Source: a virus
Virus record (IMG/VR): IMGVR_UViG_3300013132_000036
Location: 20,524 to 84,523 of that record
Reading direction: 5' to 3' (one strand)
Length of the DNA: 64,000 nucleotides
The position numbers and the translations under genes were made by a program. Of the stretch, positions 19,410 to 57,856 are shown in pieces. How positions within the stretch are numbered: position 1 is the stretch's first letter; every line of letters begins with the position of its first letter. The notes beneath the pieces are model-generated. The model had not been told where the DNA came from. It was given only the letters and a program-made list of their open reading frames with translations, and did no database searches.

Positions 19410-21739
19410 TTATTAGGATTATTTTTAACCGAATTAGGATCATCAGTAACTGGGAATCCTAAAGCGTTACAGTATTGTATGTATATTTTATTAAATGCTC
19501 CATTTTCTAGTTTAGGGTGAACTTGAAGAGCTGCTGTTAAGAACTGAGCTGCTTTAAGTCCCTTAAATAAATTAGCACCTGGCGCTCCTGGTGTGAAATA
19601 ATAATTAACCACCTTCTGTACATTTAACCCTTGGGATTCTCTTCCTGATATAGAATCTGCCAAAGCATCTATGTTTATATTATTTGACTGAATGCTGCTT
19701 TTTAAAGGAGTAGTAGTTTCTCCTTTTCCTGTTTTTACAAAACCGCCAGTGGTGTTTATTAGGGATGCTGGTTTAACACTGAGGATAGAACTACTTCCTA
19801 GAGGATAAGGTTTTTTAATGTTGATTTGTTTTGTCAAAGGAACTTTGGAAGCTATTTGATTTCCTTCAGATGTAGTAGCTCCAGTTGTTCCGGTTGATCC
19901 TGTGACTGCTACATCAGTTGTGGTAACAACAGCAGACCCAGTAACACCACCGGTGGCTGCAGTAACTTCTCCTACAGTAACACTAGTTCTTGCTATAAAT
20001 TCTGCTTGTGTTTCCCAAGATCCCGAATATAGCTTAGTCTCTGTTCCGTCCGGTGTTTTTGTTATAATATAAAAATCTCTAGAGGTAAATCCTAAAACTT
20101 TTTTAGAATTAGTGTCTACCACTTTAAATGCTATCTGACCAGCGGAAGGATTAGACACAGTGGATTTGTTTTTTATATTTTCGACTCTTACACTCTGTCC
20201 GCTGCTATCAAGAAAAACAAGATAGTAACTTAAAGACGTTCCTAAATCTATTATCTCGGGAGATGTACCTTCTTTGTAATTATAAACTGTAAACTTATAG
20301 AAGTTGTCAAATGGGTCAACGACTATTTTTCCCTTACCCTGTCCAGATATTTGAGTTGCACCAGGGACTGATGTCTCAGATATTAAATCTCCGTTTCTAT
20401 CTATTACAAGTGTTTCTTTTGTTATTGATATGTTGTTATCCTTATAAAAGACAGGAATTCTTTTTTCTATAGGAGCAGCAGGATTAGGCATAACACCACC
20501 CGACACAACGTTTGGTGCTTGAATTATTTTATTATAGACCTTCTGTGAATAAGCTCCAGTAGTAAGAGAGATGACGTTGTTTTCTTTTCCGTATTTATTT
20601 ACATCAAAAGAACTAATAGAGGATCTTCTGATTATTTGATTCTGATTCCCCTTGTTAACTAATCTCATAGTGTAATTAACTAGGAAAGAAGTTGTCAAAG
20701 GATTTATAAGAATAGGCCTAAATATGTTAGGTGCATTAAAATCTTGTGTCTGAGTGTTACTAAAGTTATAAGTTGTAATGTATGTTAGTCCAACTTGTTC
20801 TTTCACCTCTATCTCGTTTATTACATAATAAATGTTGCCAACTTTACCTTCTGCATTTAAGAAATCCTCTAAAAAATTTCCATCCCAAGTTGGATAAAAT
20901 TCCAGATAGTTATAGAATTGATTTTGTTGGATAACAGCAGCTAAGGAAGAAAAATTATCCTTAGGTATTACAGAAAGAGAGCTTCTTAACTGTGCTATAT
21001 AATTTTCATATCCATTTTTAAGAACTGACTGTGTTATCTCATATAGAGACACATTTATCGGAGCGTCCTTTAAAAACCCGTTTCCGTCCGATGATATCTT
21101 AGCTGCTAGAGTGTTTGCTTGTGCCGGTGTGTTTGCTAGTATATCAAACTCATAAACCATGTTAGCATAAGCAGGAATCTTTACCTCTATGTAATGATCA
21201 TAAAGAGCACCACCTAAATAGATAGGATTAGGATTAAGAACCACAGAAGAAGTATCAGATTTAGTGATTAATCTCTGAAATATAGTTGCTTTCTTTCCAG
21301 TTCTCTCTTGGAACTCGCCCTTTATTATAATACCATCTATGTTTTCGAAATTGTATCCTGCTACTATATGGAATTTTATAGTGTCATAATAAACACCTAT
21401 GTTGGAAGGAAATACTACAGGTAAATTGTTTACTGAAGTTAATTTAGGATCAGTGTCTAGATAAGGAACTAAATAATCCTGATCTAAAGTTACAAATCGA
21501 TTTTTGTCGGTTTGAACAACACTAAGATCCCTTACGTTTCCTGTTGTGAATTCTGATGCTGGGTTATTTAATATCTGGACAGAATTATTGAAATAGCCAT
21601 TAACAATTTTCTCGTATCCTATAGCAGGATTACCTGTGTTAACATAGTAAATTTCAGGAGTTGGTGCAGTCGTGTAGTCATACTCCATTAATAAGTAACT
21701 ACCGAATTTTATAAATCTTTCTGTCGAGGTATAAGCCAT
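19406..21739 (-). CDS. Virion structural protein (unassigned)
   Basis: 777 aa beta-rich, T/G linker; GATATATA 4 nt upstream. Confidence 0.55.
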   Translation of the reverse strand: MAYTSTERFIKFGSYLLMEYDYTTAPTPEIYYVNTGNPAIGYEKIVNGYFNNSVQILNNPASEFTTGNVRDLSVVQTDKNRFVTLDQDYLVPYLDTDPKLTSVNNLPVVFPSNIGVYYDTIKFHIVAGYNFENIDGIIIKGEFQERTGKKATIFQRLITKSDTSSVVLNPNPIYLGGALYDHYIEVKIPAYANMVYEFDILANTPAQANTLAAKISSDGNGFLKDAPINVSLYEITQSVLKNGYENYIAQLRSSLSVIPKDNFSSLAAVIQQNQFYNYLEFYPTWDGNFLEDFLNAEGKVGNIYYVINEIEVKEQVGLTYITTYNFSNTQTQDFNAPNIFRPILINPLTTSFLVNYTMRLVNKGNQNQIIRRSSISSFDVNKYGKENNVISLTTGAYSQKVYNKIIQAPNVVSGGVMPNPAAPIEKRIPVFYKDNNISITKETLVIDRNGDLISETSVPGATQISGQGKGKIVVDPFDNFYKFTVYNYKEGTSPEIIDLGTSLSYYLVFLDSSGQSVRVENIKNKSTVSNPSAGQIAFKVVDTNSKKVLGFTSRDFYIITKTPDGTETKLYSGSWETQAEFIARTSVTVGEVTAATGGVTGSAVVTTTDVAVTGSTGTTGATTSEGNQIASKVPLTKQINIKKPYPLGSSSILSVKPASLINTTGGFVKTGKGETTTPLKSSIQSNNINIDALADSISGRESQGLNVQKVVNYYFTPGAPGANLFKGLKAAQFLTAALQVHPKLENGAFNKIYIQYCNALGFPVTDDPNSVKNNPNK

Positions 21740-46068: not shown

Positions 46069-47766
46069 TTAGTTTCCTGTTTTTAAAGAACTCTTAAGTA
46101 ATCCATTTACTCTTGAATTATAAGTGTAAGGAACAATTGCTCTTATGTCTATATTTATAGAGGAAAGAGTTTCCATACCTGCACCAAGATCATAGAATAT
46201 ACCATTCCTATCGTCCCATCCTCCTGATATAACGACTATTTCGTCCTTACCTATTATTATGTCCCCAAATTCATCAAATCCTATTTCAGGTGCATTAGGA
46301 TTTTGAGCTTTAGCAGCTTCATTTTCTTCACCAACAAAGTAAAGAGAAACTGAGTCTACTCCCTCGATTTCTTCCACAGCAGCAATTAGATCAGATTTTG
46401 GTATTTTATCTCTTCTTCTAATATTAAGGAAATAGTCACTAAGGGTGTTTGTTATTGTTGTTTTTATTGTGTCGGGATCATTGCCCTCAAACATTGTTAA
46501 AGCTATGTTTACAACGTATCTTTTTATAACAGGATCTAGTATTTTAACCTCCGTTGTAACTATCTTTTGTCCACTCTCATCCAAAAGCTGATATATCCTA
46601 TCCCTCTGTGGCTGTGTTAGTTTAAATCTAGAAACAGGGATATCAAAATATGTTTCGTTGCTTTTTAATGTTAATTGAATGTCAGGAACAAGTATTATAT
46701 ATATGACATTATCATCATCAATATACTGATCATCAAATGTTGTAAAAGCCTCTATTATAGAGAATTGTCCAAATTTTTCAAAGAATGTTATGTAGTTAGT
46801 TGGATTGGCTAAAACAAAACTCCTGGAGGTCTTAGGAGCTATTAATCTTGTTAAATCTACAGATTCTTGATTTGCTCCCATTTGAGGAGCAATTGTACAT
46901 GCAACTTGTAGAACCTCAGACAAACTAATAGTATTTCCAAATAAATCTGTACCTTCAGAATCAAAATTAAATATCACTTGGGAAGAATTTTCAACATTTA
47001 TATTGCCATTACCTCCGGATGATTCAAGGTAGGTTACCTCTATAACAGATCCTGCTGCAGGGGGTAATCCAAAATCTCTATTACCAAAGAAAATATCAAT
47101 TCCTGATATAATTGAACTTTTCACTAAGTATCCTAATCCGTTTCTTGGTATATCATATAGAGAATCATATCTCTTCCATTCTACTCCATTAACTTTAACA
47201 TACACTTCAAAGTTTTCTATACCTGAAGTACCTCTAGATGAGATATTAAAACTCTGTAGCAGTCCTCCACCTCCTGTATATCGATTAACAGCAAGGGTTC
47301 CTTCCATTATCGAACACGATAACTGGGAAGTACTGTCAAGATTTAATCTAGTGTATTCTTGAGGAAATTTAAGCAAATAAATTTTACCATTATTAACACA
47401 TTTTATTTGTGAGTTTCTAGGTATAAGAACTGCGCTTCCCCCTATATCCTCTATGTTTTTACCGTTCCATTTTATAGTAACTTCCCCTTTAGCTGATATG
47501 TTTCTAGTGGGGTTGTGTCCAGCTAATGTTGCTAAACCGTATATGGATGATTCCCTTGTAGCTGTGTTTATATTTAACTCTGTTATTGAGTCCTCTATAA
47601 AGAACAAAACAAATTGAGAAAGGTTGTCCAATACAAATATTATTTGTCCCCACACAGAAGCAACAGTAAACAACTGGTTGGACATTCCATATCTTGCTTG
47701 GATTAACTCAAATGTTTGAGATAATAAGTCCGATATTTTCGCTCTATTTTTTGGTATTAAATCCAT
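46069..47766 (-). CDS. gp6: Baseplate wedge protein, T4 gp6-like
   Basis: ELNINTATRESSIYGLATLAGHNP, IFFGNRDFGLPP, VTYLESSG..GN, GANQES. Confidence 0.8.
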   Translation of the reverse strand: MDLIPKNRAKISDLLSQTFELIQARYGMSNQLFTVASVWGQIIFVLDNLSQFVLFFIEDSITELNINTATRESSIYGLATLAGHNPTRNISAKGEVTIKWNGKNIEDIGGSAVLIPRNSQIKCVNNGKIYLLKFPQEYTRLNLDSTSQLSCSIMEGTLAVNRYTGGGGLLQSFNISSRGTSGIENFEVYVKVNGVEWKRYDSLYDIPRNGLGYLVKSSIISGIDIFFGNRDFGLPPAAGSVIEVTYLESSGGNGNINVENSSQVIFNFDSEGTDLFGNTISLSEVLQVACTIAPQMGANQESVDLTRLIAPKTSRSFVLANPTNYITFFEKFGQFSIIEAFTTFDDQYIDDDNVIYIILVPDIQLTLKSNETYFDIPVSRFKLTQPQRDRIYQLLDESGQKIVTTEVKILDPVIKRYVVNIALTMFEGNDPDTIKTTITNTLSDYFLNIRRRDKIPKSDLIAAVEEIEGVDSVSLYFVGEENEAAKAQNPNAPEIGFDEFGDIIIGKDEIVVISGGWDDRNGIFYDLGAGMETLSSINIDIRAIVPYTYNSRVNGLLKSSLKTGN

Positions 47767-47768
47767 CT

Positions 47769-48140
47769 TTATAATATTTTAATTCCTAATATAGGATTTC
47801 CTTTTATTGCAAAATCTATAATACAGGCATCTCTAGTTTCGCCCCTAATAAAACCAACTTGAAATTCAACATTAAAAAGGGAATAAGCTAAAGGCACGTA
47901 AGTAAGTAGGTGGAGATCTACTGCTCTTGTTAGAGTGTTCTGATCTACTTCAAGGTCAAAAATAAGACCTTCCAGATCTATTCCAAAATATGGATCTCCA
48001 AGAACTTCTCCTGGACTAGTAAGCATACAGTTTTTAATCATACCTATAAGTATTTCTACTTCATCATCGGTATGTAAAAGACCTTCCTTATAGTTTGGAT
48101 CGTCTGGATTTCTTGGATAAATTTCGGAATATCTTGCCAT
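47769..48140 (-). CDS. gp25: Baseplate wedge / sheath initiator, gp25-like
   Basis: IKNCMLTSPGEVLGDPYFGIDLEGLIFD; adjacent to the gp6-like gene. Confidence 0.8.
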   Translation of the reverse strand: MARYSEIYPRNPDDPNYKEGLLHTDDEVEILIGMIKNCMLTSPGEVLGDPYFGIDLEGLIFDLEVDQNTLTRAVDLHLLTYVPLAYSLFNVEFQVGFIRGETRDACIIDFAIKGNPILGIKIL

Positions 48141-48147
48141 CTTGTTC

Positions 48148-48155
48148 TATATATT
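48148..48155 (-). promoter_or_regulatory. Candidate late promoter AATATATA
   Basis: 7 nt upstream of the gp25-like ATG. Confidence 0.5.
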
Positions 48156-48173
48156 CAAAGAAAAATTAAAGGA

Positions 48174-48406
48174 TTATTTTATAGACTTTTCTCCTTTAGA
48201 ATTATAGATCCAAAACTCAAAATAAATTCCAAGATCCAGACATGCTTGTTTTTTTGTTTTGTTTATGGATATAATGAATCCAAAAAAGAAGTGAGAGATT
48301 TCAATTGCTTAATATCATTGGTATCCTTAGGAAGATCCCTCATAATAGTTCCAAAAGCTTTTCCTGATTTAGATCTCCACGATTGAATTTTTTCAAGTAT
48401 ACACAT
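48174..48406 (-). pseudogene. Internally deleted homing-endonuclease remnant
   Basis: 47-aa ORF 48263-48406 (MCILEKIQSW...LKSLTSFLDSLYP*), then in another frame INKTKKQACLDLGIYFEFWIYNSKGEKSIK*, resembling the C-terminus of phage PD-(D/E)XK endonucleases. Confidence 0.5.
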
Positions 48407-48449
48407 AAATTTTTTTATATGTATTATATATACAAAACCTATTAATATT

Positions 48450-49229
48450 TCAATTCCATTGAAGGAAATAACTTGGGGTGTTCTCGTCTTTTATCATTTG
48501 GATAATCTCTGTTTTTTCCGTGGTTCCTATAGTTTGTATATTATTATAGTTAACCCTAACACCTCCCGGGAGATTATATTCGAATGTACCTAATAATCTA
48601 CCGATATTAATCTTAGCCTCTGCCAAGCAGAATCTAACAAATAATTCGTCATCATATAGGTTTTCCTCTGGTATGTCTATATAAGCTCTAACTCCTACAT
48701 CGGTGCCAGTAAAAAGTGTTGAAGAACTTCCTCCATCTGTTTGGTATGTTCTATTAGGATCCCTACCTAGAATTGTTAGTCTTTTAGTATTTTTGTTATA
48801 ATTAAATGCGTAAGTTTCCAATAAGTAAGCTTTAGCAAGATCGAAGAAAGAGTATAGAACTGTTCTATAAACTAGGTTATCTCCAGCAAAAGGGGAAAGC
48901 ATAAGCTCAGAACCTAATAATTTAGAATCTCCAAAATCCTTATCTGGTGTACCAATCAAACCAGATCCATTTACTTCTCTTACTTCATATATAGATCTAA
49001 CGCACTGTGGCATTTGTATTTGTCTCGTAGCTCTAAATGCTTGTGTTGAAAATAATTCTCTACCTAAAACAAATATTCTGTCCTCTACTGCATACTGATA
49101 ATTGTCATAAAAATAAGCTCTAGCTCTTTTTATAATCCTTTTTATCTCTTGCTCGTTTAGATTATATGGTAAGGCGCAAGAATGAGAGATGTCATCTCTT
49201 ATCTCTTGGATTAAGTCTGCTTCAGTCAT
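48450..49229 (-). CDS. gp13: Neck / head-completion protein, T4 gp13-like
   Basis: LNEQEIKRIIKRARAYFYD, FNYNKNTKRL, IGRLLGTFEYNLPGGVRVN. Confidence 0.75.
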   Translation of the reverse strand: MTEADLIQEIRDDISHSCALPYNLNEQEIKRIIKRARAYFYDNYQYAVEDRIFVLGRELFSTQAFRATRQIQMPQCVRSIYEVREVNGSGLIGTPDKDFGDSKLLGSELMLSPFAGDNLVYRTVLYSFFDLAKAYLLETYAFNYNKNTKRLTILGRDPNRTYQTDGGSSSTLFTGTDVGVRAYIDIPEENLYDDELFVRFCLAEAKINIGRLLGTFEYNLPGGVRVNYNNIQTIGTTEKTEIIQMIKDENTPSYFLQWN

Positions 49230-49234
49230 GCTAT

Positions 49235-50677
49235 TTAATTATTTGATTTGAAATTTATTCCAGGTATACCGGAAGGCTTGGAGTTGTTATCAGAAAATCT
49301 AGTAGGCTGTGCAGGTTGATCCCCCTCATTTCTATTAGGGAATTGTTTTCTTTTTAAACTTCCTTTTAACTTCTTATCATCCTCTGCGTCATTAACAATT
49401 TCTGTTTCCGGTGATATACTAGCCAATTTTCCTATAAATCCAGATCTTATTATCCCACCAAATACTTCGCAGTTTATTTCTTTGTCCTTATTGTCGATAT
49501 AACTGTCATGGACTGTATTAGTAAAATAAAGATCTGAAAGCATTATCTTAGATCGATTCACCTCATTGTTTGTTATTAAATCGCATTCTTCTATTGTACA
49601 GTCGTTTAATTTACATGTAAACATTCTACAATTCAATATATTACCAGCTATCTCTCCCTCAAGAATATCATAATCTTTAAGAAGATATGCTCTAGTTGTT
49701 TTTATATCCTTAAGTTGAAATTTGCCCAAAGAGCTATCATAGTTTATAAGCCCCTCTTTTATATTATTTTCAACTATTAAATCGTAAAGAACTTCTCTTA
49801 TGGTAATGAAGAAAGATCTTAATATCTGAGTATCAGATCTTAGATCCACCATGATATTCATATGAGGATAATTTTTCTGAAATGTGTCAGGATCTATAAA
49901 GGTTGATGCGTTCTTGTAAATTTCATTTAAGAACATTCTTAACACCTTTAAGTCATTTTCTGTGAATCCATTATTGTATCTTAAAACACCTACAGTATAA
50001 GTTATTATATAATCTATTACCTCTTTTATTGAAGTGTATCTTTTCTGGTAGTCTTTCCCTCCTAAATATCTAACCTCAAAATATCCCTCAGGAAGTTTTA
50101 AGAAATTAATACCCATATTCTTCTCCAATGGTACCTCAAATAGATTTTTGTCTATAAAAGAAACATTAGTAGGATCAACAAACTTATTAACTGGAACTAT
50201 TCTTTTAATTGATTTGGCGTAAAGAGACCCGGATCTTTCTGGAAATCTTTTATAGATGAAGTTTTCATCAAAACCTAGAATATACTTAAGAGTATTAAGT
50301 TGATTCATCGGTGGGACATCTGGATAGATCGATGTGTCGACACTTAATCCAAATTGAAAAGCACACTTTCTATCAGTGTAACCATTCTCGTCTATCCATT
50401 TTAAGGTTTTAATTAGTATTACTATAGCCTCAAAATACGGAAGAGGACCCGTGATGAATTCTACCATCTTGGATCCTCCTGAGTAATCTGGTTCTAGTTT
50501 AAAAATATCCTTGGTAGGTTTAAAGCTAGAATGATATTTTTTAAAGAGAAGTACCTTTTTTCCTAACACCTTTCCTAATTCACTCGCTATCTCATTCCTA
50601 TTTAAGTTGCTGTAGAACTCAAATTCAAAACCTAGCTGAGTAGAGTAGAAAAAATCATTAGTAAGTAAATTAGCCAA
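49235..50677 (-). CDS. Amidoligase-2 (COOH-NH2 ligase)-like protein with repetitive C-terminal domain
   Basis: LGFEFEF, LEPDYSGG..MVEFITGPL, TDRKCAFQF, INF, YFEVRYLGG. Confidence 0.65.
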   Translation of the reverse strand: MANLLTNDFFYSTQLGFEFEFYSNLNRNEIASELGKVLGKKVLLFKKYHSSFKPTKDIFKLEPDYSGGSKMVEFITGPLPYFEAIVILIKTLKWIDENGYTDRKCAFQFGLSVDTSIYPDVPPMNQLNTLKYILGFDENFIYKRFPERSGSLYAKSIKRIVPVNKFVDPTNVSFIDKNLFEVPLEKNMGINFLKLPEGYFEVRYLGGKDYQKRYTSIKEVIDYIITYTVGVLRYNNGFTENDLKVLRMFLNEIYKNASTFIDPDTFQKNYPHMNIMVDLRSDTQILRSFFITIREVLYDLIVENNIKEGLINYDSSLGKFQLKDIKTTRAYLLKDYDILEGEIAGNILNCRMFTCKLNDCTIEECDLITNNEVNRSKIMLSDLYFTNTVHDSYIDNKDKEINCEVFGGIIRSGFIGKLASISPETEIVNDAEDDKKLKGSLKRKQFPNRNEGDQPAQPTRFSDNNSKPSGIPGINFKSNN

Positions 50678-50680
50678 CTT

Positions 50681-51808
50681 TTATTTCTCAATTAATTGTA
50701 TTTTAAGAGTAGAACTATCTACACTTAAGATCGAGAAATCAACCGATTGCCCAACCTCGTATTCTTTAATAGAGCTTACTAATTTCTCCTTTTCGATAAG
50801 GCCGGTTAATCCGTTTTCTATTTTTACAAAAACCCCGAAAGTTTTAATTTTAGTAACCTCTCCTTTATATATTTTCAAATTGGTATTTTCTCCTAAAACT
50901 TCGGACGAAGTATCCTTTATTTCCTGGATACTTTTCATTTTTTCATTCGGTTGTGTTGCTGATAAATTTATTCTTTGTGGATTTTTAATATCAATTACAT
51001 AGAATTCTATTGTGTCTCCAGTTTGATATTTTTCTAAAGATGACCTGTTAGAATCATCAATCGAAATTATACCAGTGTAGATCTCATTCCATTCAACAAA
51101 TACCCCATTGTTAGATAATCCAGTAACAACGCCTTCGTATCTAGTAGAGAATGATAGGTTCTGTACCTCTTTTTCTATAATTTTTCTAAGGTATTTTTTA
51201 AATGATACAACAAAAATATCTCTCTTTTGATCGTATACCTCAACCATTACAGTGAGTTCTTTACCTACATAGCCGGCAAAATTCATAATCCTGTTTGCTG
51301 CAGCAAGACTGCCAGGAAGGAAGCATTCTATTCCAGATAGATCCACCATAAATCCTCCGTTACAAACGTTCTTAACTCTAACCTTGAATGCACAATCTTC
51401 TTCTTTAATAGATCTATGTAGTTCTCTATTAAGTGCTTTTTCATATCCAGCAGAAATAGATCCATTAAATGCACCAGATGAATCTTTGTGTATCACCACA
51501 TCAAGGGATTGACCAGGATTTATCTCTATTGCAGGATATCCTAGTTTTCTCATATTTTTCTCCTCCTTTTTGGTGTCTATTATAATAGTCTGACCAAATG
51601 GGGTTTCCCCTAGAGCAACTCCTCTTTCATTATCAATAGAAGTTATGGTTATTTTCTCTGAAGAATTATTTTGTATGTCCTTTCCTGTTATTTTTTTATT
51701 TTCCTCCGGAAAGGTTCCATTATACATAGCTTCTAATCTTTCTCTTTCAGCTACGTCATAATCGAAGGAACTAAAATTTTTGTTTTTCATATTATTTGGG
51801 TTTATCAT
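50681..51808 (-). CDS. rpsA: Ribosomal protein bS1 homologue, four S1 domains
   Basis: D2-like GGFMVDLSGIECFLPGSL...GKELTVMV..YDQKRDIFVVS; YEGVVTGLSNNGVFVE; GEVTKIKTFGVFVKIENGLTGLI; N-terminal ERLEAMYNGTF resembles Bacteroidetes bS1. Confidence 0.85.
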   Translation of the reverse strand: MINPNNMKNKNFSSFDYDVAERERLEAMYNGTFPEENKKITGKDIQNNSSEKITITSIDNERGVALGETPFGQTIIIDTKKEEKNMRKLGYPAIEINPGQSLDVVIHKDSSGAFNGSISAGYEKALNRELHRSIKEEDCAFKVRVKNVCNGGFMVDLSGIECFLPGSLAAANRIMNFAGYVGKELTVMVEVYDQKRDIFVVSFKKYLRKIIEKEVQNLSFSTRYEGVVTGLSNNGVFVEWNEIYTGIISIDDSNRSSLEKYQTGDTIEFYVIDIKNPQRINLSATQPNEKMKSIQEIKDTSSEVLGENTNLKIYKGEVTKIKTFGVFVKIENGLTGLIEKEKLVSSIKEYEVGQSVDFSILSVDSSTLKIQLIEK

Positions 51809-51846
51809 TGTTTGTAGTATAAAATTGCATTAAAATTTCCAACAAG

Positions 51847-54800
51847 TTAATATTTTTTAGGATTAAAAGCTTTATTGAGTTCCTCGGGAAGTTCTGGTAT
51901 AGGATATACAGGATCTGCAGACCCAAAAAAGAATTTAAATAATCCAGATACATCAGCGGCGCTTCTTAAAAATTCGTCTATATAGATAACATAGTATGTA
52001 TTCCGAAGACTCATTCTTCTCCAAACCGGATGGTCGTCGCTCATTGCTATTGGGTTTATTATATTTAACACATTTCTTCCAATGAGTACTGCAAGAGGCC
52101 AAGGAATTTTAGAAATTAACTCGGATGAAGCAGTAACAACTGGTAAAACTATTTTATCAGGTAAAGGTGTTTTAGGAAGGCTTTTAAAGTATGTCCAGAA
52201 CAAACTATAAACTATTCTAGCTGGAGGAGGTGCACCTAATCCTATTAAAGCCTGCTCGATCATATCTGTTGGTCTAGCAGGGGGAAAAACAGGAACCTTT
52301 AATACATTTAAAAAAGGAGGAACGTCAGGGGAATCTGGATTTATCAGATTTGTAACTAGATTCTTACTTAACTTCTGTATGTCGCTAGGTTCAAGATTTA
52401 AAAATTTAGGAGAATTGACATCGTTTATTTCCGGTAATAGTTTCTCTAATGCTCCAGCGTCCAATGATTTCGTAAGACCCTCAATAAGAAAAGATTTTAT
52501 CTTAGATCCTGGAATAGTAATCTGTATAGTTCCACCAAGTCCAGGTATTTGTGTTAACTGATCTTGTTTAGGGGGAAAAACAGTGGGAAGTTCAAAAGCA
52601 GCCACAGCATTTCCAAATCCACCGTTAAGGGATCCGAGACAAGATAAAGGTCCTTTAGGATATGGAAATCTAGATATAAGAGGTTCTTCCTCATCTAAAG
52701 GTCTAACGGGATCAAAAGGACCTATCCTACTTAATCCTAATTTTTTAGAAACTAATTTTTTAAGATCTTTTACTCTTATTATTAAAATTGGATCCTCTCC
52801 CTCGTATCTAACATATCTAGAAAAATCCTCAGTAGTGTACTCTATTTTAGATAAGCCGTCCATGATTCTTATCTTCATTGCCTCTATAATAGGATTTTTT
52901 TTCTTTAAAAATTTAAGGGAACCTGGAGCAGAATTAGTTATTTTAATTTCTGGAAATTTGAACACTCCCTCGTATTCTCCACTCTCTACTACAGAAAAAG
53001 CACCATCTCTTACCTTTTTAATCACGGATAATTTATTCCCCCAAAGAATAGTACTAGTTATTAGTAAGGATGAACCTCTTATTTCTTTCACTAAATCACT
53101 AAATTCATCATCACTCATGGTTCTAGGATCTTTATCCTTTCTCATGAATATTTTGCTGGAATTAGCAACTTCAAAATTTTGTATTATGTATTTTGGTGGG
53201 CAAACTATTCTCATTAGTTTTAACACCTCTCTCATTTCATCCTTGAAGTTTATATAATCCGGACAATCAACAGGAACTAAACTAGCCCTCATTTCTTTTA
53301 GTATTCTAAGGGACTTTATTATACCAGGAATGTCTATCTTTAGCTTGTCCTTATCTTTAGGAAAATATATCGATTTAGGATCTGGTATACTCGTATTTAA
53401 ATAATCACTTATTACATTTTTTAAAGCATCCTTCCTTTGCCCTATTATACTTTTTAGTTCTTCAGTTTCCGAAGAAATATCAGGGGAGGGTAAATCTAGG
53501 AGAGCAGATTTATTTTTGTATTCTCTTTCTTTTTCCCTTATCTTATTTTTTAGTCCCCTTTCTTTTTCTTGTAGATCCCTAATTTTTTGTATATTACCCG
53601 GAGGAGGAACACTATCAAATATTTTAGTAATATTTGATTTTATATCACCTAGCACTCTAGCGGAAGAATCTAAATTATCCAGGCCAAATCCAGGAAGAGG
53701 AATTAATTTATCTGGCACCCCAAAAGATATCACCTGTTTTATTTTCTCTAAAGGATCTTTTATTCTAGGATCAGATTTTCTTGGTATAAATCTAGGACCT
53801 CTAATACCAGTTAGGAAAAATGAACTGCCCGTTATAAACTCTTTTATATAAACCATAGGTGTAGGCATGAATCCCCCAATAAAAGGTATAAAGATAACTA
53901 GTATTCCTAAATTAAATGGAAGAGGTATAAGTATAGGAGGAACTATAGTCCATATCATGGGCAAAGGAATCCTGATATACGGATTTCCATCTATAGGATT
54001 AGGAATCGGAATAGGGATAAAAGCAGGAGGCAAATATCCTACTGGCCAATATTTAAATCCCAATCTAATTGTAGGTCCTTGTGATAGAAAATATTTAGGA
54101 TCTTCTATTGGGGGAAGGCCATTAGGATAAGGAAGTATTCCGACTTTAGTAACATCCTTACAAAACTGTTTCCACCAGCATCTTTGAAACATTGTTGGAC
54201 AATCTGAGCTTGGTGGAGACGACAACAAATAATTGTCTGTTTTAAAATCCGATCCTGGCTCTCCACAACAAACTGGAGGACAGTTTTCTTTATCATCCTC
54301 AGCAGGGGGAGTATCAGCACCTGCACATTTTATATCAGAAAACCTTTTACCAACATTTTCTGGGTTAATTGTCTCGTTTATCTCGTCTACCTTCTGAGCA
54401 GAAAGAAGCATAAGTTCTTTTATCTGCTCATATTTCTTTTTTACATTAAAATAGTTTTCTAGTATTCTAATTCCTATAACATCAGAAGCGGGTAAAGTCT
54501 TTGCTAATCCCTCACCAGCTCTAATAGCTTGTGTTCTAAGATTCTGTAAAGCTGGGTTTATGTACTGGTTTTTATTCTCCAGATATTTAGCATTCCATTT
54601 AGTTTTAAAATTACTATAGAAATCAGTAAATATTGGGGTAGGTTCTCCCTCCGCTGTAAAACCAGCAGGTCTTGTTTTTGATGGATCCCTGGCATCATTA
54701 TCCCCTCTTTCTTCAGCAGTAAAAAATAACCAATTAGAAGATGATTTTTCTATAAGATTTCCATAAAGTATTCCTCTATCTTCAACTATTTTTTCAATTA

Positions 54801-56949
54801 TGCTTTCCTTTGAATCATTCTTTTTTATTATCTTCTCTATGAAATCATAGAATTTAGCTACATCAGGAAATCCTGTCCTTATATTATTAATTTTTAAAAA
54901 CTGATAAGTGCTTAAATACTCCGGGAAATAATTACTAAGCAATCCTCCGTTTTCTGCGTGCTCATTTCCTATTTTTATTTTTTGTTCGTCTGGCTCACTT
55001 ACTTCGGATAAAGGTTGGGATGACAATCCTTTGAAACTTATCTTGTCAGGTTTCTTTGTTTTCTTATATGGCAGAGGAAATCCATAATCGGTAACAAAAG
55101 ATAACTCAAACTGTAGTTCCCCTCTAGATTTAACAAAGTTTGTTTTGTATCTTACAGAAAAATCTTTCAAAGCTTCTAAAAAATCATACCCATAAGAGTC
55201 ATAGGCATATGATTCAGTAGTTAAACTTAATTCCAGGGGGCTTTTAAAAACTCTTTCGTTTATGTTCAGTGAAGAATTTCCTTGGCCATAAACATCAGAA
55301 GTTGCAGTGTTAGAGGGAAGGAAAGATTTTTCAACATCCTCTACCGAAACAGGAGCATTTTTTCTTTGCGCAAGTGTCTCTACCGCTGCATCAAGTAAAT
55401 CCTGAGTTTCTTGTATTTTATTTTCTATGATTGATATAAAGTTTCCTTCTATCATCACGGATCTTATGCCCTCTACATTTTCTTTAAATCTAAGTATCGC
55501 ATCAGAAACAGGCCATGATTGTGTTGCATCATTATAGGTAACAGGAGATAAACCAGCATTTATCTGATCGTTAAAAAGCTGCTCCAGATCGCTGTCGCTT
55601 AGTTCTGTATCATAAACATCCAGAAGAAATAACTCCTCAGTGAATATGTTATTATTTTCTAAAAATAAAGTCTTGTCGTTGTTATATTTTTGTATCTGAT
55701 CTATTAATTCTTTTTGGTAGATAGAAATTTGATCCTTGTAAGTCAATATAGAAATTCCTATCTGGAGATTAGTAGGATCGCCTCCTTCATTTTTAGGTAC
55801 TCTTGAAAGCCAATTATCATATAGGGATTTTTGATATTCATATATAGCTTCGTAATGATAGAGTATCTCCTCTAGATTTCTCTCTATCATTTGCCACCTA
55901 GCTAAAAGTTTTACATCTTCCTCTAATTTCTTACTTGCATCTAAAGCTGAAGAAACGCAAGCATCTATAGCATCAACATCCACGCTAGGAGGTTCTGGAT
56001 CATTAACTTCCTCTCTTTTGAATTGATAGACGGGAGGATCACAAAAATCTTCTAGAGTTTGATCGAAACCAGATTTAGTTAAAATAGGATCCCCTGTTAT
56101 AGGATCTTCTGGTATACCAGGTAAACAATCATCATCTATTATTGGATCATCCCCGTCGGGATAGAAATTAGCATCAAAAGCATCTACTCTTTCTGAAGTT
56201 GTATTTTCATCTACATCTTTAAAATCACAAGGATTTGTATTACTATTTTGGGTTTTTAAAACGCCATTTATTTTTTCTAAAGCTCCGTCTAAATTTATTT
56301 CTCCGTCCCCAATTTTAACGTGAACTATTTGCGTTCCGTTCATTATAAATTGTAAAGGGATTTCAAATCCCAGTACATTCATTTTTCTTTTCTTTCTAGA
56401 TCCTGAATTAGAAGGCTTCCCTAGTAACAATGGATCTAAATTGTCAAATATTTTTTCATTTGTTTTTTCTAAAAATTCAGGATTTTTATTTTTAAGATAT
56501 TTAACAATCCCATCCGAAGGTATTTTTTTAGAAAAACCTAGATCCCTATTACCCCCCATTTTTACTCCTAGATCCTTTTCCGAGACTGGTAGGTTATCTT
56601 TATATTCATTAGAGTCTAAAAGCTCGTTATACAGCTTAAAATCATCTCTTTTAAGGGTTTCTAAAATGATCCTGCTATATAAGTCATCGCCCTCGTATTT
56701 ACAGGCAAGATCCTCTATGTCTTTTATTGGGATAGGAGGCTTTTGTGGATTTAAGCTGTCTATAATAGAATTAACCTCTTTCTGACTTTTATCTAATTCT
56801 CTTTCGAATCCCTCCTTAGATTGTAGATCTTCATAAGGGATATTAAAATCCTGTCCACCAGATATTATATTTAATATCTCATCGGTAGACATCTCGGAAA
56901 AATCCTTACCTAATAAATCATCTATTCTAGATCCTATATTATCTGCCAT
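51847..56949 (-). CDS. Large unknown protein next to the gp5-like gene (helical, Cys cluster, Pro-rich hydrophobic segments)
   Basis: 1700-aa uninterrupted ORF; no recognised domain. Confidence 0.6.
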   Translation of the reverse strand: MADNIGSRIDDLLGKDFSEMSTDEILNIISGGQDFNIPYEDLQSKEGFERELDKSQKEVNSIIDSLNPQKPPIPIKDIEDLACKYEGDDLYSRIILETLKRDDFKLYNELLDSNEYKDNLPVSEKDLGVKMGGNRDLGFSKKIPSDGIVKYLKNKNPEFLEKTNEKIFDNLDPLLLGKPSNSGSRKKRKMNVLGFEIPLQFIMNGTQIVHVKIGDGEINLDGALEKINGVLKTQNSNTNPCDFKDVDENTTSERVDAFDANFYPDGDDPIIDDDCLPGIPEDPITGDPILTKSGFDQTLEDFCDPPVYQFKREEVNDPEPPSVDVDAIDACVSSALDASKKLEEDVKLLARWQMIERNLEEILYHYEAIYEYQKSLYDNWLSRVPKNEGGDPTNLQIGISILTYKDQISIYQKELIDQIQKYNNDKTLFLENNNIFTEELFLLDVYDTELSDSDLEQLFNDQINAGLSPVTYNDATQSWPVSDAILRFKENVEGIRSVMIEGNFISIIENKIQETQDLLDAAVETLAQRKNAPVSVEDVEKSFLPSNTATSDVYGQGNSSLNINERVFKSPLELSLTTESYAYDSYGYDFLEALKDFSVRYKTNFVKSRGELQFELSFVTDYGFPLPYKKTKKPDKISFKGLSSQPLSEVSEPDEQKIKIGNEHAENGGLLSNYFPEYLSTYQFLKINNIRTGFPDVAKFYDFIEKIIKKNDSKESIIEKIVEDRGILYGNLIEKSSSNWLFFTAEERGDNDARDPSKTRPAGFTAEGEPTPIFTDFYSNFKTKWNAKYLENKNQYINPALQNLRTQAIRAGEGLAKTLPASDVIGIRILENYFNVKKKYEQIKELMLLSAQKVDEINETINPENVGKRFSDIKCAGADTPPAEDDKENCPPVCCGEPGSDFKTDNYLLSSPPSSDCPTMFQRCWWKQFCKDVTKVGILPYPNGLPPIEDPKYFLSQGPTIRLGFKYWPVGYLPPAFIPIPIPNPIDGNPYIRIPLPMIWTIVPPILIPLPFNLGILVIFIPFIGGFMPTPMVYIKEFITGSSFFLTGIRGPRFIPRKSDPRIKDPLEKIKQVISFGVPDKLIPLPGFGLDNLDSSARVLGDIKSNITKIFDSVPPPGNIQKIRDLQEKERGLKNKIREKEREYKNKSALLDLPSPDISSETEELKSIIGQRKDALKNVISDYLNTSIPDPKSIYFPKDKDKLKIDIPGIIKSLRILKEMRASLVPVDCPDYINFKDEMREVLKLMRIVCPPKYIIQNFEVANSSKIFMRKDKDPRTMSDDEFSDLVKEIRGSSLLITSTILWGNKLSVIKKVRDGAFSVVESGEYEGVFKFPEIKITNSAPGSLKFLKKKNPIIEAMKIRIMDGLSKIEYTTEDFSRYVRYEGEDPILIIRVKDLKKLVSKKLGLSRIGPFDPVRPLDEEEPLISRFPYPKGPLSCLGSLNGGFGNAVAAFELPTVFPPKQDQLTQIPGLGGTIQITIPGSKIKSFLIEGLTKSLDAGALEKLLPEINDVNSPKFLNLEPSDIQKLSKNLVTNLINPDSPDVPPFLNVLKVPVFPPARPTDMIEQALIGLGAPPPARIVYSLFWTYFKSLPKTPLPDKIVLPVVTASSELISKIPWPLAVLIGRNVLNIINPIAMSDDHPVWRRMSLRNTYYVIYIDEFLRSAADVSGLFKFFFGSADPVYPIPELPEELNKAFNPKKY

Positions 56950-56950
56950 A

Positions 56951-57856
56951 TCATACTCCAGTTATTCCGCTAGTTCCTGACGTTCCACTGGTGCCAGATG
57001 TCCCAGATGTTCCCACATTAGGTATACCAACAGGAGAATCAGCATTAGCAGGGACGGTAGGAAAGTCTGGTGCATTTTCTCTAGTAACTCTAACAGTCTG
57101 ACTTGTTGCTAATTGTTCAAAGCTAGACGCCAAAGTTGAATTAACCCCAGGTGTGGCTGGCATTTTACTATCAACCGATATAGCTAGTTTTTTTAAAAAA
57201 TCCCAAAGAGGTTCAGCACAAACTGCCGAAAATAAAGGGGAGTGTCCAAGATTAGTTGTTTTTCCATCCATCCAAACTTCTTCAGAACTGTGTTTAATCC
57301 TAGTCACTGCAGTGTTTTCTATTTCCTGGTCTGCATACTTAGTTATTTTACCGCCTTTTAATTCTATCGATGCAGTGTCATCAGCATGTGTAATTAGTAT
57401 AGAATTATCGTTCCTAATAATTATTTTAGATTCTTTTAAATCTATAACTAATCCCTTCTCTACGGTGTAGTACATCTTTAATCTTTCTATACCATCATAA
57501 ATTAAAGAATGAGCTCCGTCGTAGCTAGCTCTGATTTCGTCTACTAAATCTGGGGATAATTCCTGAACTGCTTTGTATTCTGGACTGTAATAATTTCCAT
57601 TGTTGAATTGGACATGTACTACTGATCCTAGCTTGGGAACAGATATTCTTCCAGATCCTCCTCCTAGTCCATAGCTTTGTTCAAATCTTTGATGCGACCA
57701 TGGAAGATCAGCATCCCCTAACTCATCAAAAATACCAAATATCCTAACTTTAGCCCTTCCTTTGAATTCTGGATCTTTGTTATCTACAACTACACCCAGA
57801 TAGTGTGATATCTCAGTATTAGGTTTCTCTAGTTTATTTCTGTCTACTAATCCCAT
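56951..57856 (-). CDS. gp5: Baseplate central spike, gp5/VgrG-like OB-fold without a lysozyme domain
   Basis: GVVVDNKDPEFKGRAKVRIFG...LPW...VPKLGSVVHVQFNNGN..PEY. Confidence 0.8.
   Translation of the reverse strand: MGLVDRNKLEKPNTEISHYLGVVVDNKDPEFKGRAKVRIFGIFDELGDADLPWSHQRFEQSYGLGGGSGRISVPKLGSVVHVQFNNGNYYSPEYKAVQELSPDLVDEIRASYDGAHSLIYDGIERLKMYYTVEKGLVIDLKESKIIIRNDNSILITHADDTASIELKGGKITKYADQEIENTAVTRIKHSSEEVWMDGKTTNLGHSPLFSAVCAEPLWDFLKKLAISVDSKMPATPGVNSTLASSFEQLATSQTVRVTRENAPDFPTVPANADSPVGIPNVGTSGTSGTSGTSGTSGITGV

Follow-up and report, generated by a model that had tools for sequence, protein, structure and literature searches.

Huge phages have been described to carry a 'possible rpS1', which Al-Shayeb et al. 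(2020) proposed to hijack translation initiation and linked to the absence of Shine-Dalgarno (SD) sequences (PMC7162821). Other ribosomal proteins of viral origin have been taken further: Mizuno et al. (2019) found virus-encoded bS21 and bL12 to enter Escherichia coli ribosomes, and also mentioned viral bS1 fragments, the S1 domain itself being set aside as non-exclusive to ribosomal proteins (PMC6375957), and Chen et al. (2022) described a bS21 of freshwater Bacteroidetes phages that is encoded within the structural block and expressed late (PMC9723584). On the host side, Bacteroidia initiate without SD pairing and rely on bS1 and upstream adenines, with the manner in which bS1 reads the leader presented as a still open question (PMC13000457). 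Our literature searches returned no functional work on a phage S1. Here we analyze an S1 gene in a 64,000-nucleotide stretch of viral DNA (the window; positions 20,524 to 84,523 of IMG/VR record IMGVR_UViG_3300013132_000036), originating from a large, uncultured lake-water phage, and compare the encoded protein with bacterial bS1 and with these phage systems.

The longest open reading frame (ORF) covers 50681..51808 on the minus strand and yields 375 amino acids from an ATG at 51808. When the upstream regions of 13 relatives are aligned, all 13 have the ATG at 51790 and 3 have that at 51808, and hence the protein is most likely 369 residues long, with the coding sequence at 50681..51790 (minus strand) and the stop codon at 50681-50683; residue numbers throughout count from the ATG at 51808, not from that at 51790. 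The ORF, noted in the preliminary description of this DNA, is a real gene on the minus strand, with Pfam S1 (PF00575) matching in three stretches at an E-value of 1.5e-23. Moreover, 21 NCBIfam models match, the best of them bS1 models in colinear alignment (e.g. positions 56-340 of 516 in TIGR00717), so that the comparison of domain profiles with bS1 that had been called for returns colinear matches, at scores below the curated cut-offs (95.2 bits for NF004952, cut-off 524; 94.6 bits for TIGR00717, cut-off 577). In a phmmer search of PDB sequences, E. coli bS1 ranked first (E 1.6e-21; query 93-247 on E. coli 59-217). The AlphaFold model, generated with 36 orthologues (predicted local distance difference test, pLDDT, 81; predicted template modeling score, pTM, 0.48), displays a helix at residues 19-32 and then four OB folds, at about 49-117, 141-202, 223-283 and 314-374, and its top Foldseek match is ribosome-bound E. 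coli bS1 (E 4.7e-22). Using VIA-align, residues 30-207 of the model superpose on E. coli bS1 3-174 (Z 13.7, root-mean-square deviation 5.8, 170 of 172 residues), and the more extended stretch 27-375 aligns with E. coli bS1 1-347.

Six OB domains characterize the bS1 of Gram-negative bacteria including Bacteroidota, and the presence of only four in the phage protein, already noticed in the preliminary description, is borne out by the model as well as by profile alignment. Comparing the 36 phage orthologues with 30 Bacteroidota bS1 in hhalign gave a probability of 99.4 (E 1.3e-21), with phage residues 12-372 placed on bS1 11-358 of 581. Because the alignment terminates at position 358 of 581, the phage protein corresponds to the N-terminal helix and domains D1-D4, without D5-D6. 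The truncation is native, since the C-terminus is conserved among the 36 orthologues, and a search for longer homologues recovered four weak long S1 proteins only, with no fused form. Full-length bS1 (ORFs of 580-850 amino acids) was present in all 61 sampled Bacteroidota genomes, one of which also holds the short S1 form, on a contig with phage baseplate synteny; as every genome has the full-length protein and the short form is confined to this phage-syntenic contig, the latter is not a cellular gene. Aggregated, the best explanation of these alignments is that the phage protein represents a copy of the N-terminal 60% of a bS1 of class-Bacteroidia type, comprising the helix and D1-D4.

We then turned to the residues that fasten bS1 to the ribosome. 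In E. coli, F5 and F9 of bS1 stack on F32 of uS2, an interaction that is essential for binding, K43 enters the zinc pocket of uS2, and mRNA at the exit channel is accommodated by a pocket built from F120 and F130 of D2 (PMC4288201, PMC10123108). The N-terminal helix segment of the phage protein (residues 16-33; 51710..51763, minus strand) is of the Bacteroidia bS1 type and corresponds to the helix by which E. coli bS1 binds uS2: aligned alone in hhalign, it reached a probability of 93.5 and a score of 30.7, whereas none of 30 column-shuffled controls exceeded 14.0. In the alignment of the 36 orthologues with 30 Bacteroidota bS1, the phage residues Y17, E21, L25, Y29, G31, T32 and F33 map to Y, E, L, Y, G, T and L in a Bacteroidota bS1. 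L25 and Y29 thereby fall on L24 and Y28 of that bS1, which align with F5 and F9 of E. coli; Y29 is invariant among the 36 orthologues, and L25 is leucine in 28 and methionine in 8. At the sequence level, a helix equivalent to the uS2 anchor is accordingly present. The early impression of a Bacteroidetes-like N-terminus thus holds when profiles are compared and fails with phmmer, as the first 135 residues alone retrieved no bS1 from the PDB sequences, only chance p53 matches at E about 1.

D1 (residues 49-117; 51458..51664, minus strand) is a divergent OB fold, delineated from the strands of the model and the structural alignment with bS1 D1-D2. Here D78 and K81 map to the D and K of the 'DIGFKSEG' stretch of Bacteroidota, itself aligned with D39 and K43 of E. 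coli, although an adjoining gap renders the mapping approximate. Position 81 is lysine in 35 of the 36 orthologues and arginine in the remaining one, and by this approximate column mapping the D1 loop lysine appears to be preserved. D2 (residues 139-205; 51194..51394, minus strand) is the most conserved part of the protein and closely follows bacterial D2, as had been recognized from its FLPGSL motif: it aligns with E. coli bS1 D2 in phmmer and hmmsearch, and F153 and F163, the counterparts of F120 and F130, are invariant (36/36), which points to the non-canonical D2 with FLPGS and aromatic pocket that is typical of bS1. Pairwise ratios of nonsynonymous to synonymous substitution (dN/dS), calculated for nine pairs, are 0.05-0.09 for the whole gene and lowest for D2 (0.00-0.04), which averages 0.92 in amino-acid identity. 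D4 ranks next in conservation (0.83) and D3 is the least conserved of the OB domains (0.71), with the N-terminal residues 7-48 at 0.60; for pairs that are not near-identical, dN/dS amounts to 0.05-0.18 in D3 and 0.06-0.11 in D4. Collectively, the data support that the docking half of bS1, i.e. the N-terminal helix, D1 and D2, has been retained and is the part under most constraint, D2 above all.

The anchoring region is nevertheless reduced vis-à-vis that of the host class. In Flavobacterium johnsoniae, an F(D/N)W motif resides in a helix that touches uS8, the N-terminus of bS1 being stably bound to both uS2 and uS8 (PMC13000457). F(D/N)W followed by Y(S/T)..ER..LE..Y..TL is found in 24 of 30 Bacteroidia bS1, sampled from the class of genome G001, a Saprospirales metagenome-assembled genome (MAG) and hence a member of Bacteroidia; in a phylum-wide sample, the F(D/N)W motif occurs in 1 of 31 bS1, namely that of G001. 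Within the wider phage family, 11 of 38 representatives carry F(D/N)W, and the N-termini of these 11 align with the Bacteroidia N-terminus at a probability of 95.0 and a score of 40.6 (shuffle maximum 12.0). The F(D/N)W helix is absent from the window S1, whose N-terminus starts about 10 residues before Y17. The window subfamily has lost the first helix and keeps the second alone.

As a host-type helix, K81, the F153/F163 counterparts and the constraint on D2 are all retained, docking at the bS1 site of the host 30S subunit would be the simplest account of the protein. It could alternatively serve off the ribosome, as a chaperone or regulator of phage transcripts that influences their stability or processing or couples them to a phage enzyme; in that case the ligand of D1-D2 would be a phage factor and not uS2, reminiscent of host S1 serving Q-beta replicase or T4 RegB. 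The missing uS8-contact helix and the conserved RNA-binding aromatics of D4 (see below) are in line with such a role, bS1 D1-D2 employ one and the same surface for Q-beta replicase and uS2 (PMC4288201), and Al-Shayeb et al. leave the function of the huge-phage proteins 'on or off the ribosome' (PMC7162821). We nonetheless regard this as unlikely, for the helix, K81 and the F153/F163 pair are best explained by the ribosomal site, and in the wider family S1 has no constant companion gene.

Beyond the docking half, the protein departs from its presumed template. We take the RNA face of a canonical S1 domain to involve two aromatics and a histidine. D3 (residues 222-285; 50954..51145, minus strand) maintains the S1 fold with a remodeled RNA face (TGIISIDD): the first aromatic and the histidine position are lost in all 36 orthologues, and only F237, one of the three positions, is kept, again in 36 of 36. 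D4 (residues 313-375; 50684..50872, minus strand) is likewise of S1 fold, with glutamate in place of the canonical histidine (TGLIEKEK); both aromatics, F324 and F327, and E339 are invariant (36/36), so that two of three canonical positions persist, and the domain is modeled at pLDDT >90 with a Z of 12.2 to domain 4 of Mycobacterium tuberculosis bS1. Both departures from the usual motif are present in the translation as originally pointed out. The accompanying suggestion of 'rewired or disabled' mRNA binding separates by domain: rewiring is congruent with D3, where two positions are lost throughout, whereas disablement does not fit D4, with both aromatics in place and conservation second only to D2. 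In the wider phage family D3 mostly has an aromatic at the first position (28/38) and the histidine (25/38), and the remodeled D3 is therefore a trait of the window subfamily. Together, the missing D5-D6 and the remodeled D3 would imply altered mRNA handling.

These same features could instead reflect host shut-off, in which S1 occupies the uS2 site, recruits mRNA poorly and blocks host bS1-dependent initiation in a dominant-negative fashion. The lack of D5-D6 and of two canonical RNA-face residues of D3 in 36 of 36 orthologues would be compatible with this. Also in its favor is a 2012 study by Byrgazov, in which E. coli S1 cut down to its N-terminal part reportedly competed for ribosomes and lowered overall protein synthesis. 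However, D3 and D4 are under purifying selection, D4 being nearly as conserved as D2, which is unexpected if the docking half alone mattered, and we consider shut-off quite unlikely. Returning to a docked S1 with modified mRNA selection, the leaders of the phage itself are of relevance. SD enrichment is absent at the gene starts, with an SD core at 9 of 61 starts and a background of 14%, and adenine attains frequencies of 0.57-0.69 at positions -14, -11, -5 and -3, a pattern shared with Bacteroidia (PMC13000457). The nearest cultured relatives of the wedge protein encoded downstream infect Flavobacterium, Tenacibaculum, Chryseobacterium and Sphingomonas; added to the signature of the N-terminus and to leaders that are A-rich and devoid of SD sequences, this renders a Bacteroidia host likely.

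The S1 gene itself is preceded by a conserved intergenic element of 28 nucleotides (TTGGAAATTTTAAT ... TATACTA; 51815..51842, minus strand), located directly upstream and kept in 12 of the 13 relatives aligned, including ones with as little as 65% protein identity. It has a single exact match in the window, with looser matches at chance level, and no consensus RNA structure was predicted for the upstream leader. It could act as a promoter specific to this gene, or else as an operator of translation. Scans of the window for general signals were negative: the candidate late-promoter motif GATATATA occurs 9 times against 7.4 expected, with none between 37728 and 64000, and sigma-70 and terminator scans remain at or below shuffle level, without any excess in the baseplate block.

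This block (46069..57856, minus strand) consists of a hub-like protein of 301 amino acids, a 1700-residue protein, S1, p480, a 259-residue protein, a gp25-like protein and a gp6-like wedge protein. The preliminary placement of S1 inside the structural genes is confirmed, with PHROG matches identifying its neighbors as baseplate genes (gp5/hub-like, gp25-like and gp6-like). In 34 of 34 related viral contigs, p480, the 259-residue protein, gp25-like and gp6-like genes trail S1 in the same order; the gap between S1 and p480 is below 180 nucleotides in 33 of these and 1.66 kb in L021, and the 1700-residue protein precedes S1 in 33, the 34th contig beginning within S1. The arrangement recurs in the 462-kb phage LR756500 (S1 29% identical) and on L038, a 64-kb contig binned into a Saprospirales MAG (S1 36% identical). 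By contrast, S1, p480 and the wedge gene are widely separated in LR756501-04, LR745206 and the Lak phages, which do not keep the arrangement. By analogy with phage bS21 (PMC9723584), placement in the baseplate operon would suggest late synthesis. A further possibility is that S1 is packed in or on the particle, either to be delivered with the DNA and act on ribosomes as soon as the next infection begins or as an exapted structural or assembly part. That S1 occupies one and the same slot between hub-like and wedge genes even in relatives with S1 at 29-36% identity suits such a virion association, and Chen et al. raise the same possibility for phage bS21 (PMC9723584). It is, though, very unlikely in our view, given the distance between S1 and the wedge gene in the huge phages that do not keep the arrangement, an S1 N-terminus that is explained by bS1 ancestry and, by eye, does not match the consensus of a proposed capsid-targeting leader, and the lack of any sequence feature specific to a structural role.

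Weighing these observations, we give roughly even chances to a mechanism in which S1 is made late, docks on the host 30S subunit at the uS2 site and alters mRNA choice. Synthesis of S1 would fall late in infection, at the same time as that of the baseplate proteins or slightly before it, and S1 would dock on host 30S subunits at the uS2 site that is normally taken by host bS1. The shorter mRNA-binding half and the remodeled D3 would then alter which leaders are recruited, favoring unstructured, A-rich, SD-less phage leaders over host mRNAs. Ribosome binding, competition with host bS1, the timing of expression and the effect on mRNA choice are all features that we infer from the sequence. With respect to the interpretation first offered, a ribosome-docking S1 with rewired or disabled mRNA binding, the docking half, the D3 face and the SD-less, A-rich leaders have stood up, and the notion of disabled mRNA binding has not.

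Several points speak against this mechanism. The protein scores far under every curated bS1 cut-off (about 95 bits versus 524-577), and a plain sequence search with its first 135 residues finds no bS1. Of the two phenylalanines of E. coli, the first is exchanged for L25, a substitution that the sampled Bacteroidota bS1 share, and docking may be weaker or different because the uS8-contact F(D/N)W helix is absent from the subfamily. The stable position in the baseplate operon equally fits a virion-linked role. Furthermore, among the sequencing runs listed for the S1 locus none is on record as RNA, and two inspected runs labeled 'RNA-Seq' are contigs, one of them probably DNA. Finally, the phylogeny does not put the phage family within Bacteroidia. 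In a quick IQ-TREE analysis of 98 rows (38 phage, 59 Bacteroidota and E. coli as the sole stand-in for other phyla), the free tree assembled the 38 phage rows in one clade (SH-like approximate likelihood ratio test 100, stem length 3.76) outside all 59 Bacteroidota rows. Constrained trees surpassed it, by 26.0 log-likelihood units with the phages joined to Bacteroidia and by 17.6 with the phages joined to other Bacteroidota, hence the free search was poor; the two constrained placements differ by only about 8 units. The phylogeny against host bS1 that had been suggested as a check therefore recovers the phage rows as monophyletic and does not settle their origin.

S1 proteins of this kind are widespread in viral sequence collections. 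A word-indexed search identified 314 relatives, of which the best 120 include 117 of 345-405 residues at 49-100% identity and lie on contigs of up to 320 kb. An exhaustive profile search with a limit of E <= 1e-3 yielded 5327 cluster representatives, of which 166 reach E <= 1e-30, and 119 of the best 150 measure 340-450 residues. Named relatives are called 'ribosomal protein S1' by their sources, and none stems from a cultured source. The species-representative Saprospirales MAG G001 (loci C190, L038/L039, and C215, L040/L100) includes a 64-kb contig with full baseplate synteny and a short S1, beside the 589-residue bS1 of the genome itself; most likely, this is a phage contig that was binned with a possible host. 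Separately, two of the 61 Bacteroidota genomes possess a second, partial-length S1 paralogue besides full bS1 (G049:C1:313251-314264 and G045:C41:23165-24157), scoring about 225-230 bits to TIGR00717 over model positions 86-428.

Among the neighbors, the 1700-residue protein (51847-56949, minus strand) features long proline-rich and hydrophobic stretches, has no Pfam or PHROG match, and sits at the position expected for a tape-measure protein or one that is ejected. No other gene of the baseplate block evolves as fast (55-93% identity), and its length differs greatly among relatives, with 944 residues in L038. Extra DNA is inserted in some relatives, of 1.7 kb between S1 and p480 in L021 (11110-12770) and of 1.3 kb between the 259-residue and gp25-like genes in L005/L007 (13354-14639).

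Immediately following S1, p480 (49235..50677, minus strand) starts at a TTG 3 nucleotides past the S1 stop codon, a start that is conserved in 11 of 11 aligned relatives, and appears to combine an amidoligase-like N-terminal part with a beta-helix C-terminal part. The N-terminal assignment derives from GFEFEF near the N-terminus and from sub-threshold matches to PF12224 (Amidoligase_2) in 3 of 7 orthologues (14-20 bits, cut-off 22), with PF12224 also present in 12-19% of members among Protein Atlas neighbors; the window p480 itself does not match PF12224. The model is poor overall (pLDDT 58.5), with a confidently modeled beta-helix at ~310-430, and the fold search gave no PDB match at E <= 0.001, glutamine synthetase appearing only at a Foldseek E of 0.13 and the weak fold matches being pentapeptide repeats. 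Relatives of p480 exist in six huge-phage records and were not found in the Lak phages. The gene adjoins S1 only in the window clade, LR756500 and L038, and is distant in LR756501-04 and LR745206; a functional S1-p480 pair as a general rule was rejected on the ground that the genes are far apart in 5 of the 6 huge-phage records that hold both. At the junction of the two genes, third codon positions are unusually alike among 15 relatives: their identity, about 0.5 before the junction and about 0.45-0.58 elsewhere in S1 and p480, is 0.64-0.69 within S1 codons 301-375 and the first 25 codons of p480 (window 50620-50910, minus strand). Covariation across the junction is weak (4 of 44 pairs, covariation term -1.46), and a small hairpin within the D4 coding sequence shows two compensatory pairs. 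Candidate causes of the raised conservation are the TTG initiation region, an internal promoter or recombination.

A more specialized version of the docking mechanism, to which we attach a low probability, is that the window subfamily constitutes a specificity-switched initiation factor. Docking would involve no ribosomal protein but uS2, and the factor would recognize in the late leaders of the phage something to which host bS1 does not respond. Its synthesis would be set by the upstream element, and the translationally coupled, amidoligase-like p480 might modify S1 or a ribosomal partner. This idea rests on the shedding of the uS8-contact helix and D5-D6 and on the rebuilt RNA face of D3. 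A modifying enzyme of this type has a parallel in RimK, which modifies bS6.

The window makes up the final 64 kb of a single viral contig of 84,523 bp with 34% G+C and no terminal repeat. CheckV estimates the contig to be 31% complete, from which a full genome of roughly 270 kb would follow. Nearly all genes of the window are on the minus strand, the low-coordinate half holding replication genes (DNA polymerase, helicase, primase and single-stranded DNA-binding protein) and the high-coordinate half tail and baseplate genes. No bS21 gene was found on the 84.5-kb fragment, nor were tRNA genes found on the fragment or in the window.

How, then, does the window S1 relate to the systems described so far? 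As with phage bS21, the locus would supply large phages of Bacteroidota with an exchangeable protein of 30S initiation, encoded within the structural block (PMC9723584) and proposed to substitute late into host ribosomes (PMC9723584, PMC6375957). The two differ in their support, for it is bS21, not S1, that is backed by metatranscriptomics and by incorporation into E. coli ribosomes in these reports (PMC9723584, PMC6375957). Relative to Bacteroidia bS1, exemplified by the 591-residue protein of F. johnsoniae (PDB 9zcd_A), the phage protein is colinear through the N-terminal helix, D1, D2, D3 and D4, has an N-terminal helix of the Y..ER..LE..Y..T(L/F) type, and is likewise associated with mRNAs without SD sequences (PMC13000457); it differs in lacking D5, D6 and the F(D/N)W helix and in a D3 without the first aromatic and histidine. 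It thus represents a natural minimal bS1 of four domains, kept under strong selection by a very large phage clade, and could serve as a probe for which parts of bS1 serve docking and which leader choice.

The closest comparison is with the huge-phage rpS1. That such genes occur in some huge phages, as stated in the preliminary description, was reported by Al-Shayeb et al. (PMC7162821), and we recovered direct relatives by tblastn at 24-34% identity and E-values down to 6e-28 (LR756500-LR756504, LR745206 and the Lak phages). The connection of phage rpS1 to SD-less genomes was likewise published in 2020, and the idea is not new (PMC7162821); the supplementary tables of the same study may list these very genes. 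The window S1 shares with the huge-phage proteins a multi-S1-domain composition in a genome that rarely uses SD sequences (PMC7162821), and in being phage-encoded, in a phage gene context and without SD enrichment it displays what defines a 'possible rpS1'. It differs in its layout of a helix and D1-D4 within about 370 residues, with a host-type N-terminus and retained docking residues, and in its fixed operon position, gene-specific upstream element and the remodeled D3 of its subfamily. Such a protein would directly test the idea, advanced in 2020, of a rewiring of host ribosomes by huge phages. As such, the window S1 adds no new principle, and constitutes a well-supported example of the phage S1 predicted since 2020.

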